This document shows, in pieces, positions 7,937 through 19,157 of a stretch of 64,000 bases of DNA. Under the pieces are notes generated by a model. The model made no database searches. It worked only from the letters and a program-made list of their open reading frames with translations, and had not been told where the DNA came from. The DNA is taken from NCBI GenBank assembly GCA_002376875.1, contig DFOT01000003.1:37191-101190 (forward strand), in the 5' to 3' direction. Origin of the DNA: Opitutia bacterium UBA3534. GTDB taxonomy: Bacteria; Verrucomicrobiota; Verrucomicrobiia; Opitutales; UBA3534. Position 1 is the stretch's first letter, and each line of letters opens with the position of its first letter. The position numbers and the translations under genes were made by a program.

Positions 7937-8113
7937 ATGTCTCACAAAAAACAAGGACAAGGATTAGTTGAATACATCATTCTCGTAGGTTTGATTGCGC
8001 TACTCGTTTTCGGATTAGTAAAAGCCTTTGGTGATGAAGTAGGAGATACTATCGAAGAAATGACTGATTCCACCGAAGATGTCGGTAAGGAAATCAAAAA
8101 AGGCCGGAAGTAA
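7937..8113 (+). CDS. flp: Flp-family type IVb pilin (58 aa), absent from the supplied ORF track (<60 aa)
   Basis: Own translation: MSHKKQGQGLVEYIILVGLIALLVFGLVKAFGDEVGDTIEEMTDSTEDVGKEIKKGRK*. It has the Flp motif G/QGLVEY followed by a hydrophobic helix, and sits directly upstream of the secretin and ATPase genes. Confidence 0.8.
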   Translation: MSHKKQGQGLVEYIILVGLIALLVFGLVKAFGDEVGDTIEEMTDSTEDVGKEIKKGRK

Positions 8114-8264
8114 TTAGCCATTAGAATCGCTGAGACCTATCAGTCCTGATGGGTTCTTAGTGTTTCTAGTCGAATAATAATTTCCTTTTTTGTAGGGGCT
8201 CTCTTTTTTGAAAAAGAGCAGCTGTCTCCCTATATCTTTGAATAACGATTATATTAGTATCTTA

Positions 8265-9860
8265 ATGAATATGCTATATGACCCCAGAGAGTCTTTCCAA
8301 AGGCTGCGTGTTACCTTTTTAACCCTAGCAATAGCAGCGGCCTTCGGCGTGACGCCAAGGATAGCACTTGCTGATATCGATGAAGATTTCTTGTTTACTA
8401 ACGGAAATACCTCCTCGAGTCGTTCTCAAATGAATGGAAGACAGCAAGGAATGCAATCCACCACTAGAAACGGACGTGCACTCTATAAGATGCGTGTCGG
8501 AGAAACTAAAAACTTCTCCCTTAAAGGAACAGCGGAAACGATTAATGTCGAAACCCCTGATGTTGTAGAGCTCTTTTTACCAGAGCCTGGAACGTTATCC
8601 ATAACAGGAGTAGACAAAGGTGTAACTACCTTAGCTATTCGTTATGAGGATGGCTCCATCAACATGCTAGGTGTCATTGTTTCCGAAGAAGGCGAAATCC
8701 CTGCTGACATTTTGTTAACCCGGCTCGAGACAGCTTTGGGCAGTGTGGATGGATTGAGCCTCGAAGTTCGTGAAGGTAAAGTTCTTATTACAGGAACTGC
8801 AGATACTCGTAACAAAAACTACTATAAACAAGTAGTAGGTTTGTTTAGAGATGAAGTGATCAGTCGTGTTCGGTTTACGGACGAGATGATTTCACCTGCG
8901 GCTTCTGACATGATGGTTGCCTCAAACATCGCTCAGCCAGATGACATGACTCCTTCAACAGGGATTGTCCAAGTTGATGTGAAGATTGTTGATGTTAACC
9001 TCGATAGAGCAAAGCACATTGGTGTTTCTTGGTTTAATACAGGAACAGGTGCTGCCTTCAACGGAGATTATGGCGTTCAGTCTGGTGATGGAGCAACAAG
9101 CCCTGGTGGAGGCGGTAGCCGCCTTTCAGTAGGAGGCTTGCTTTCTGTTGAAGACCTTGATGCTAAACTTCGTTTCTTGGTGAATCGTAGTGCAGCCCGT
9201 TTGCTTGCAACACCTAAGCTTGTTGTTGCCAGTGGCGAGACTGCTAGCTTCAATGTAGGTGGAGAGATCCCTATTGTTCGTGAGACTAACGAAAACTTCT
9301 CTGTAGAATATAAGAAGTTTGGTACCTTACTTGAAGTGACTCCTGTGATTATGGGTACTCACTATGTCGATGTGCACGTGAAGTCTACCCTAAGTTCTAT
9401 TGATGAAAACTTAGTTGTAGGAAGCTCGAACATGCCTGCTTTCAAAAACAAAGATGCAGACACCCGTTTGACAGTGAAAAGTGGAACCACTTTTGCCCTT
9501 GCAGGCCTTATTCAGCAAGAAGAGTCAAACAGTCATTCAAAGCTCCCTGTTTTGGGTGATGTGCCAGGACTTAGCCTTGTCTTTAAGAATAAGTCTCGCT
9601 CTTTTACAACTACGGAAACCTTGGTTTTGATGACACCCTACCTCGTTACCGATGTTGATAATCGTTTGACTCATGATAAGAAGCCAATGTTAGGCAGTGA
9701 ATCTATCATTGATGTTTTGAATGCAATGGACGGCAACTTAGTGCCTGAAGATTACAGCAGAACTCAAGACATTAGTGACTCAGGTGCCTACGAATTTGAC
9801 GAGCATGAGCATTTCACTATGCGTCAACACCGTCGCAGGAACCGTGTACGAGGTCGATAA
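8265..9860 (+). CDS. cpaC: Tad pilus secretin (CpaC/RcpA family)
   Basis: Secretin C-domain (LLATPKLVVASGETASFNVGGEIPI...KLPVLGDVPGLSLVFKNK...TLVLMTPYLV). A signal-peptide-like segment LTLAIAAAFGVTPRIALA follows ATG 8265. The track alternative start is TTG 8208. Confidence 0.85.
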   Translation: MNMLYDPRESFQRLRVTFLTLAIAAAFGVTPRIALADIDEDFLFTNGNTSSSRSQMNGRQQGMQSTTRNGRALYKMRVGETKNFSLKGTAETINVETPDVVELFLPEPGTLSITGVDKGVTTLAIRYEDGSINMLGVIVSEEGEIPADILLTRLETALGSVDGLSLEVREGKVLITGTADTRNKNYYKQVVGLFRDEVISRVRFTDEMISPAASDMMVASNIAQPDDMTPSTGIVQVDVKIVDVNLDRAKHIGVSWFNTGTGAAFNGDYGVQSGDGATSPGGGGSRLSVGGLLSVEDLDAKLRFLVNRSAARLLATPKLVVASGETASFNVGGEIPIVRETNENFSVEYKKFGTLLEVTPVIMGTHYVDVHVKSTLSSIDENLVVGSSNMPAFKNKDADTRLTVKSGTTFALAGLIQQEESNSHSKLPVLGDVPGLSLVFKNKSRSFTTTETLVLMTPYLVTDVDNRLTHDKKPMLGSESIIDVLNAMDGNLVPEDYSRTQDISDSGAYEFDEHEHFTMRQHRRRNRVRGR

Positions 9861-9914
9861 GTCTAACCTTTTATACGTATAGCCCTATTACCTCCTTAAG
9901 AATACCCCTCATAA

Positions 9915-17976: not shown

Positions 17977-18025
17977 TCTTGTCTTTTATTAGGGAGCGTA
18001 ACAGACTATTGAGTAATATTGTGCT

Positions 18026-18799
18026 ATGAGACAGTTATTGTGGGTTGTTTTTATATGGGGCCTAAGTTCTGTTAGCCTTTTAGGGCAGCAAAACTTTAAG
18101 GATATTTACTTAGAGAATCAGCCTAAGGATCCGTTTATTGACGCTTTGCGTCCTCGCTTAAAAGACTCTTTGTTGCTTTCTTACTTGGCTTACCGCGATG
18201 GAGAGTACGCGATTGAGGCAACTACGGTAATTCCTGGTCCTGCTTCACAAGTATTAGACTTTTATAAAAAGCAGTTCGATGAACATGGCTTCCCTTACCA
18301 AGTTAAAGAATGGAACGGGATGACTTTGTTCATGGGGATGATTGATGGAGAGTCTAAAAAAGTTTTCTTGAGCAAAATGCCTCAAGGTACCTTAGTGCAC
18401 CTCATCTCAGAGAAGACGGGGCTACAATTCGCAAGCCTTCTAGAAAGGCACCCCGAACTTGGTGGTATTGATGGCCAGTGTGTGCTCCATAACGAACAGC
18501 ACCAAGGCGTATCGCGTACGGGCTTACTTAAGTATGATTTTAATACAGGCGGAGAGTATGGTCTGCGCAATATTGAAAATAAGCTAGTGAATAGTGGTTG
18601 GAAGCCTTCTTTAAAGGATACCTTTAAGAAAGCAGGCATTGATGCACCTGACGGGATTGTAGGCTTTTTTGAGAAAGACTCTGTTACCTTGATGGTTGTT
18701 CCTGCTCGCTCAAGTGATAAAGAAAAAGGCTCTGTCTTAGTCTATTTTGAAGATACTTTTGGGGTGCCTCGTCAAAAACATTGGACGCTTAAGCAATAG
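18026..18799 (+). CDS. Secreted hypothetical protein at the distal end of the Tad locus
   Basis: 257 aa. Signal peptide MRQLLWVVFIWGLSSVSLLGQQ. No family recognised; by eye it has two similar small alpha/beta-like halves. Confidence 0.5.
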   Translation: MRQLLWVVFIWGLSSVSLLGQQNFKDIYLENQPKDPFIDALRPRLKDSLLLSYLAYRDGEYAIEATTVIPGPASQVLDFYKKQFDEHGFPYQVKEWNGMTLFMGMIDGESKKVFLSKMPQGTLVHLISEKTGLQFASLLERHPELGGIDGQCVLHNEQHQGVSRTGLLKYDFNTGGEYGLRNIENKLVNSGWKPSLKDTFKKAGIDAPDGIVGFFEKDSVTLMVVPARSSDKEKGSVLVYFEDTFGVPRQKHWTLKQ

Positions 18800-18803
18800 G
18801 TCT

Positions 18804-19157
18804 ATGAAGGATGGCGTCTATGAAGTATGGCGTGCGGGCGATCGCTTGTTAAGTAGCTGTCAGTATAAAAGCTCCTTGTGGTTTCGTCTTAAAGGACTAT
18901 TGGGCCGTAAAACCTTGCATGCACACGAGGGTATCTTGATCAAGCCTTGCCAAAGCATTCATATGTTTTTTATGCGCTTTGCTATTGATGCGGTTTTTCT
19001 TAACAAGAAGAACGAGATTGTCCGCATTTATCCAGGAATTCGTCCGTGGCGGATGACCCGGCATGTGTGGGGGAGTGATTGCGTTTTAGAGCTCCCTGCA
19101 GGCAGCTCAGAGCGTTGGGGGCTTAATGTCTCCGATTGTTTGACTTTTAAGCAGTGA
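18804..19157 (+). CDS. DUF192 (COG1430) family protein
   Basis: ATG 18804 lies 5 nt after the preceding stop. DUF192-like core GLLGRKTLHAHEGILIKPCQSIHMFFMRFAIDAVFLNKKNEIV...VLELPAG. The track start at 18747 overlaps the upstream gene. Confidence 0.7.
   Translation: MKDGVYEVWRAGDRLLSSCQYKSSLWFRLKGLLGRKTLHAHEGILIKPCQSIHMFFMRFAIDAVFLNKKNEIVRIYPGIRPWRMTRHVWGSDCVLELPAGSSERWGLNVSDCLTFKQ

Follow-up and report, generated by a model that had tools for sequence, protein, structure and literature searches.

A compact Tad pilus operon of the FHA type that encodes neither TadZ nor TadV

Results

Gene content and relatives of the operon

Positions 7937-19157 of the 64-kb stretch of DNA analysed here (64,000 nucleotides (nt), referred to below as the window) hold a self-contained Tad/Flp (type IVc) pilus operon of 13 genes. 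It belongs to the FHA-type subclass, in which the CpaF/TadA motor ATPase is fused to an FHA domain. The 13 open reading frames (ORFs) are all intact, lie consecutively on the plus strand with spacings of 5-94 nt, and occur in the order flp, secretin, FHA-fused cpaF/tadA, tadB, tadC, a gene designated X, cpaB, four pilin-like genes, a gene for a secreted protein, and a DUF192 gene. An earlier reading of this DNA (the original prediction) had counted twelve genes; the ORF coordinates that it gave all stand. The features of the locus are as follows; lengths are given in amino acids (aa).

7765..7792, plus strand: sigma-70-like promoter candidate, TTGACA-16-CATACT, best match 5' of flp (10/12 matches, joint top score in 7200-20800); the total of promoter-like sites in that interval is not above the shuffled expectation, and the site is weak evidence
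7937..8113, plus strand: flp, 58-aa major pilin of the Flp type (QGLVEY after the leader MSHKKQG; homology to Flp_Fap-positive orthologues)
8134..8155, plus strand: stem-loop 3' of flp (9-pair stem, weak T tail), a possible partial terminator or attenuator
8208..9860, plus strand: RcpA/CpaC-type secretin, 550 aa, or 529 aa from an alternative start (Pfam Secretin 3.1e-38, T2SS-T3SS_pil_N 1.3e-6)
9915..11522, plus strand: CpaF/TadA motor ATPase with N-terminal FHA domain (Pfam T2SSE 1e-63, 216 bits)
11528..12373, plus strand: tadB, inner-membrane platform protein (Pfam T2SSF 5.9e-14)
12385..13290, plus strand: tadC, inner-membrane platform protein (Pfam T2SSF 4.2e-14)
13302..14189, plus strand: X, predicted bitopic membrane protein with a degenerate FHA fold, a transmembrane (TM) helix and a TPR-like domain (AlphaFold/Foldseek, family alignment)
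14209..15171, plus strand: cpaB/rcpC, periplasmic alignment protein (Pfam RcpC 2.8e-22, SAF 1.6e-5)
15219..15605, plus strand: small Flp-like or minor pilin with a Gly-rich basic tail (leader ...SKG, then QAVVEY; no Pfam match)
15611..16015, plus strand: tadE-like pseudopilin (Pfam TadE 2.5e-9; leader G-QALI-EF)
16022..17077, plus strand: tadG-like protein (Pfam Tad, PF13400, 5.6e-5, above cutoff; leader GQLLVIF, without Glu)
17089..17976, plus strand: tadE/tadF-like pseudopilin (Pfam TadE 22.8 bits, just under the 22.9 cutoff; leader G-QAMV-EF)
18026..18799, plus strand: secreted protein, 257 aa, with a signal-peptide-like N-terminus (orthologues at the same position, 2e-17 in L091 and 1.6e-11 in L092)
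18747..19157, plus strand: DUF192 protein, last gene of the operon (Pfam DUF192 7.2e-17); gene callers picked 18804 (117 aa), the probable start

A CpaF/TadA ATPase, the platform pair TadB and TadC, a secretin together with RcpC/CpaB, and Flp with TadE/TadF pseudopilins make up the gene set of a Tad/Flp (type IVc) machine, and the Tad assignment of the original prediction thus has the support of Pfam. The flp product reaches only 14 bits on Pfam Flp_Fap itself; its homology to Flp_Fap-positive orthologues at the same position was found at E 6.5e-12 (L091) and 1.6e-9 (L092). Five N-terminal prepilin-type leaders, also noted earlier, can be read directly from the sequence and are kept in orthologues, each consisting of a basic stretch followed by G-Q-x-x-x-[EI]-[YF] and a hydrophobic segment. 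Small pilin genes occupy the position equivalent to 15219..15605 in four related loci (L087, L090, L091 and L092), and public gene calls for the window copy start 3' of the prepilin leader, thus missing it.

Marine metagenome contigs of up to 1.26 Mb, from Tara, ENA and Logan, carry the ATPase. Its best relative among GTDB representatives lies in the Opitutales metagenome-assembled genome (MAG) L004, with 64% ATPase identity and the window's own succession of genes, tadA-tadB-tadC-X-cpaB-tadE-tadG. Judged by this relative, the host is probably a marine, Opitutales-like Verrucomicrobiota bacterium. Two metagenomic contigs, L091 and L092 (ATPases 62% and 56% identical, respectively), repeat the complete 13-gene order amid unrelated genomic surroundings. 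The segment tadC-X-cpaB is kept in L004, L087, L089, L091 and L092, and X-cpaB in L090; the X-family gene of L088 lies between unannotated flanks.

FHA folds in the ATPase and in X

The ATPase N-terminus (aa 18-95, nt 9966-10199) matches Pfam Yop-YscD_cpl at 37.6 bits (gathering cutoff 33.2) and, over the same segment, Pfam FHA at 29.3 bits (gathering cutoff 20.7). Both matches exceed their gathering cutoffs and uphold the FHA module that had been proposed for this protein. The top database matches of the ATPase bear the names TadA or CpaF, and precomputed FHA or Yop-YscD_cpl annotations accompany nearly all of its best 120 database homologues (in Shewanella, Pseudoalteromonas, Thiodiazotropha, Omnitrophota and KSB1). 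A rough neighbour-joining tree built on ATPase cores groups the FHA ATPases together and sets the window sequence beside that of L004 and a Myxococcia sequence.

X had been described as a degenerate FHA-like N-terminus followed by one TM helix and a TPR-like tail, and on this point fold, family alignment and model agree. In the AlphaFold model (pLDDT 87), a beta-sandwich at aa 16-91 is followed by a long helix at aa 95-132, which contains the TM segment, and by a helical domain at aa 166-294. Foldseek aligns the N-domain with solved FHA domains, namely those of GarA/OdhI, Rv0020c, Bdellovibrio DgcB and YscD (4a0e), at probability 1.0, E ~1e-4 and target-normalised TM-scores of 0.6-0.7, while the matches of the C-domain to TPR proteins are weak. 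X could not be recognised as an FHA protein from its own sequence, as it has no Pfam or NCBIfam match and is not matched by an FHA profile built from the ATPase N-termini; it was the family alignment, the other members and the fold that revealed the FHA relationship. A word-index search for homologues recovered X alone, and HMMER, run exhaustively against 1.84 billion representatives, returned only 32 relatives, nearly all of them 250-330 aa long with the same layout. Yop-YscD_cpl is matched by 4 of 26 members (best E 5.9e-12) and FHA by two. Four members have an extra segment in the family alignment (e.g. 'IGKDSSCDIVLDSS...' in P0133) that resembles the canonical FHA loop region and is deleted in X and in most of the family. 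The model and the family together point to X being a real but degenerate FHA protein.

A profile of the X family also matches FHA proteins encoded after tadC in other bacteria, those of KSB1 (8e-22), Myxococcia (3.5e-7) and the Verrucomicrobia MAG L007 (8.8e-9), which suggests that X is a reduced member of that family. In X homologues, strongly basic residues lie N-terminal to the TM helix; by the positive-inside rule, the FHA-like domain would therefore be cytoplasmic and the helical domain periplasmic. X fills the slot of TadD in canonical loci and likewise has a TPR-like tail, but its identification as a TadD-like pilotin was rejected: the TadD profile came up empty in the window, hhalign gave a probability of 0.5%, and X has no lipobox. 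The two proteins are unrelated.

TadZ and the prepilin peptidase

Pfam scans that took in essentially all window ORFs of at least 110 aa gave no match to Peptidase_A24 or to CpaE/ParA/MinD anywhere in the 64 kb. Profiles of our own, built from 63 TadV and 52 CpaE sequences of related loci and run against six-frame ORFs of at least 40 aa, were equally without a match in the window, even at E<=1. The two approaches agree with the original prediction that neither TadZ nor TadV is encoded here. That prediction had named TadZ and TadV genes immediately outside, in the same operon, as evidence that would count against it; opposite-strand (housekeeping) genes border the operon on both sides, and TadZ and TadV therefore cannot belong to it just beyond its ends.

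Two components that are commonly counted as core or Tad-specific are absent from 64 kb, as would be expected of a decaying or incomplete Tad locus, non-functional without TadZ and TadV. We consider such decay very improbable. None of the 13 closely spaced ORFs is broken, and the same gene set, also without TadZ and TadV, recurs between different flanks in genomes whose ATPases are 56-64% identical; in L091 and L092, both genes are absent within 10 kb. Both the TadZ-less Kil system (PMC8460266) and the TadV-less Tad of Bdellovibrio (bioRxiv 10.64898/2026.07.08.737194) are functional.

In order to relate the FHA fusion to TadZ, 83 loci were compared, three of which are copies of the window; the 80 others were selected by similarity to the window ATPase. 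TadZ occurs in 0 of the 24 FHA-ATPase loci and in 49 of the 59 others. Among loci with at least 2 kb of sequence 5' of the ATPase, the counts are 0/19 against 45/49 (Fisher p = 2.6e-13, phylogeny uncorrected). The TadZ-less FHA-type loci span at least five phylum- or class-level lineages. The loci of Shewanella, Pseudoalteromonas and a Moraxella plasmid have neither TadZ nor TadV, and that of KSB1 is also without TadZ. A non-FHA locus of Burkholderia has both TadZ and TadV. Extra FHA proteins are confined to FHA-ATPase loci, mostly directly 3' of tadC; the apparent exception is L020, in which the contig end cuts off the ATPase N-terminus. The distribution of TadZ gives comparative support to the earlier proposal that FHA modules stand in for TadZ. 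No statement of this mutual exclusivity was found in the literature searched, the coverage of which was incomplete.

Two side observations concern these components. In many Tad loci of Eremiobacterota/Vulcanimicrobiota (L023, L031, L040, L042, L050 and others), the CpaE/TadZ and CpaF matches share one stop-to-stop frame (e.g. 8165-11278 in L031), which suggests putative TadZ-TadA fusions like the TadZA of Bdellovibrio. At 28603-33492 of the window, four genes of 336, 206, 200 and 169 aa precede another secretin, a PilQ/GspD-type protein with N0/STN, Secretin_N and Secretin domains. The size pattern resembles pilMNOPQ, and this putative cluster, if real, would imply a type IVa pilus and a PilD elsewhere in the genome. 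The four genes 5' of the secretin could not be confirmed as pilMNOP, having no Pfam match even at E<=1.

Phosphothreonine contacts

The original prediction envisaged a phospho-regulated Tad variant. In such a system, a Ser/Thr kinase would mark a component and the two FHA modules would read the phosphothreonine and thereby switch on or position the machine, in the manner of Fha1/PpkA in the type VI secretion system. FHA domains are classical phosphothreonine readers, and an FHA signalling cascade has been proposed in the Kil literature. The canonical contacts, with GarA as the reference, are Arg (beta3-beta4), Ser (beta4-beta5) and Asn (beta6-beta7). When the window ATPase is aligned to GarA, these become Ser28, Glu42 and Glu64, which puts two acidic residues at the Ser and Asn phosphate-contact positions. 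The resulting S/E/H/E pattern recurs in the closest relatives (P0002, P0004, P0005 and L004). Elsewhere, the pattern is R/S/H/N in the Myxococcia ATPase and R/S/H/x in Lentisphaeria ATPases, and the accessory double-FHA proteins have R/S/H/N or S/S/H/N; the canonical R/S/H/N kept by accessory proteins of related loci speaks for phospho-regulation. X, relative to the FHA-positive members of its family, has lost the whole loop region for these residues. Of the two Pfam models, the phospho-independent YscD-type one also fits the ATPase domain better than FHA does (37.6 against 29.3 bits).

Neither a Pkinase nor a PP2C was found by the Pfam scans of the window. Among the 122 neighbouring ORFs of 22 FHA-type loci, the frequent families include FHA (24 members) and A24 (6 members), and neither Pkinase nor PP2C reaches 3 members. 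A PP2C phosphatase does stand beside FHA proteins in the KSB1 locus, and only there. Phospho-regulation, though the PP2C of the KSB1 locus and the intact accessory domains speak for it, is thus improbable for the window, given the ATPase triad S28/E42/E64, the missing loops of X and the lack of either enzyme family. With phosphate-binding residues absent from both, the two FHA modules are probably plain docking domains. Phosphothreonine reading at this locus appears unlikely, and by their residues and profile scores the FHA folds look like phospho-independent modules of the YscD/PrgH type.

A 480-aa orphan ORF on the minus strand (19147-20589) converges on the operon end, which it overlaps by 11 nt. 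By eye, its 'VDGHFGNMLF...SYDYDMS' resembles the DxHxxN catalytic loop and activation-loop motif of atypical kinases. It was considered as a kinase for the FHA modules and rejected, having no Pfam, NCBIfam or PDB match and not being kept beside orthologous operons, and it is not counted with the Tad genes.

Accessory and neighbouring genes

The C-terminal tail of the 15219-15605 protein is Gly-rich and strongly basic (…GGGRHGTHTPGGGGHNDGGGGGKKPRRRR), and the last ~90 aa of the 17089-17976 protein form an acidic tail of low complexity. The 257-aa secreted protein has no Pfam or NCBIfam match; its model, from a shallow alignment, has a pLDDT of 57.6 and no credible Foldseek match.

In L091 and L092, too, the operon closes with a DUF192 gene, and in Shewanella, Pseudoalteromonas and Moraxella one lies directly after tadC. 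DUF192 (COG1430) is a recurrent member or neighbour of FHA-type and TadZ-type Tad loci alike, at L085 13428-13772, L095 13422-13772, L094 12124-12447 and L092 17999-18340 and in 18/80 contig loci. The lineages include Verrucomicrobiota-like bacteria, Gammaproteobacteria, Eremiobacterota, Chloroflexota, Bacillota and Omnitrophota. The literature searched contained no paper linking DUF192 to Tad pili.

In gammaproteobacterial FHA-type Tad loci, a very large ORF follows (L094 13481-18031, L085 15001-19224, L095 15043-19245). Its product is annotated as an RHS-repeat toxin on the Moraxella bovis plasmid (L094), a 1407-aa TIG-domain protein in Shewanella and a protein of 1400 aa in Pseudoalteromonas. 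In L092, an 845-aa Laminin_G_3 protein (18970-21507) follows the Tad locus. These large ORFs may encode pilus-associated adhesins or toxins; the window has nothing comparable. At 52455-60475, the window contains a flagellar cluster (FliS, FliD, flagellin and an FlgN-like protein) with an MptE-like (PF01973) protein, and the host thus appears, from its gene content, to have flagella besides two secretin-based systems.

Discussion

An FHA-fused CpaF, an accessory FHA protein encoded by the platform genes and the absence of TadZ together place this operon with the Kil-like, class III Tad systems. The Kil system has an FHA-fused ATPase (KilF), an FHA+TPR protein (KilD), FHA proteins by the platform genes, a single ATPase and the peptidase KilA (Seef et al. 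2021, PMC8460266). Class III CpaF has the order N-terminal FHA, intrinsically disordered region and CpaF, is found mostly in Betaproteobacteria, and its FHA domain is called phosphothreonine-binding (Nat Commun 2025, PMC12019362); CpaE and TadZ are absent from the main text of that paper. In Bdellovibrio bacteriovorus, the tad loci are without TadV and PilD processes Flp1 (bioRxiv 10.64898/2026.07.08.737194). Since these systems have already been described, the architecture is not a new one. What sets the window locus apart is a compact single operon, the small bitopic X, the degeneration of both FHA sites, the lack of a locus-encoded peptidase, and a host from the Planctomycetota-Verrucomicrobiota-Chlamydiota (PVC) group.

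The likeness to Kil extends to the FHA-CpaF ATPase, the single ATPase without TadZ, CpaB, the RcpA-type secretin, and Flp with minor pilins. Kil also has FHA+TPR accessory proteins (KilD, MXAN_4648), and its PrgH-like FHA protein MXAN_4649 adjoins the platform genes. In contrast to the compact 13-gene operon, however, Kil is spread over two clusters with many extra genes and has its own peptidase, KilA, whereas none is encoded at the window locus. KilD is annotated as cytoplasmic, while X has a TM helix. Kil was described without TadG, although its gene table includes an unnamed protein with a TadG-like N-terminal domain (MXAN_4659); the window has a TadG-like gene. The window FHA modules are without phosphothreonine-binding residues, whereas the Myxococcia relative keeps R/S/H/N. 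Killing, finally, belongs to Kil and is at most a possible role of the window locus.

This last point bears on the output of the machine, which the shared signature (FHA-ATPase, FHA+TPR-like accessory protein, no TadZ) would allow to be Kil-like contact-dependent killing or effector delivery instead of adhesion. The grouping of the window ATPase with the Myxococcia FHA-ATPase in the rough tree is in line with such a role, as is the RHS toxin gene that follows the related FHA-type locus on the Moraxella bovis plasmid. Yet there is no toxin, RHS or large effector gene in or beside the window operon, which, unlike Kil, is a single unit that retains its TadG-like gene. The same FHA-type architecture is also present in Shewanella and Pseudoalteromonas, which are not known as predators. 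Killing is therefore a doubtful explanation, and the most likely output is a retractile adhesive Flp pilus.

Other known systems place the locus further. The class III CpaF proteins share the succession of FHA domain, linker and CpaF core, although the binding site of the window member is degenerate and its host belongs to the PVC group. Canonical Tad/Cpa systems (Aggregatibacter tad, Caulobacter cpa and the Azospirillum plasmid locus L084) have flp, cpaB/rcpC, secretin, cpaF/tadA, tadB, tadC and tadE/F/G-like pilins in common with the window. In addition they have TadV, CpaD/RcpB, CpaE/TadZ directly 5' of CpaF and, after tadC, the TPR lipoprotein TadD, none of which occurs in the window. The Tad systems of Bdellovibrio also have no TadV in their loci and have FHA and TPR regulators nearby, but TadZ is kept there, fused to TadA as TadZA, whereas the window has an FHA fusion and no TadZ.

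X itself shares the topology of YscD/PrgH (SctD), inner-membrane ring proteins of the type III secretion system, which combine an N-terminal cytoplasmic FHA-like domain without canonical phosphothreonine residues, a single TM segment and a periplasmic domain; members of the X family and the ATPase both match Pfam Yop-YscD_cpl. The machinery differs, however. The periplasmic part of X is predicted to be all-helical and TPR-like, unlike the periplasmic domain of SctD.

We read the locus, with a probability of roughly 0.6, as a Kil-like, class III Tad pilus in which the FHA folds serve as phospho-independent tethers in the place of TadZ and the prepilin peptidase acts in trans. X would sit in the inner membrane next to TadB and TadC, where its cytoplasmic FHA-like domain and the FHA domain of the ATPase would form a phosphorylation-independent docking pair. 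This pair would recruit the CpaF hexamer and hold it at the platform, the job of TadZ/CpaE in canonical systems, in an arrangement analogous to the tethering of GspE by GspL in type II secretion. Through its helical domain in the periplasm, X would probably contact CpaB and the secretin. The five prepilins would be cleaved by a PilD-type A24 peptidase encoded elsewhere in the genome.

Several points weigh against this tether model. The contact between X and the ATPase FHA domain is putative. So is a PilD-type peptidase in the genome, and the putative pilMNOPQ cluster has only a secretin and a pattern of gene sizes behind it. The exclusivity of FHA and TadZ was observed among 80 loci chosen by similarity, with phylogeny uncorrected. 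Lastly, phospho-binding of a non-canonical kind might in principle persist even without R/S/N.

A wider generalisation, which we put forward only tentatively, is that Tad systems have two mutually exclusive designs of motor recruitment. One would use TadZ, and the other an FHA domain on CpaF together with a membrane-anchored FHA protein encoded after tadC, a pair that would have become fully phosphorylation-independent in the Opitutales-like lineage.

Conclusions

As to how the single ATPase is recruited and positioned in TadZ-less Tad and Kil machines, the Kil papers only speculate about FHA signalling. The locus and its relatives offer a comparative rule, by which FHA fusion and TadZ exclude each other, and a conserved candidate partner in the FHA protein encoded after tadC, represented here by the small X family. 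With both FHA folds lacking phosphate-binding residues, the locus is a natural test case that separates scaffolding from signalling. With this locus and its relatives, the range of the Kil-like, class III architecture comes to include marine Verrucomicrobiota and common Gammaproteobacteria (such as Shewanella and Pseudoalteromonas), a distribution which argues that the subtype is not predator-specific. Apart from these points, the locus is an ordinary pilus operon. If the proposed docking pair is real, its minimal, hard-wired tether could be the simplest model for the assembly of TadZ-less (Kil-like) machines.

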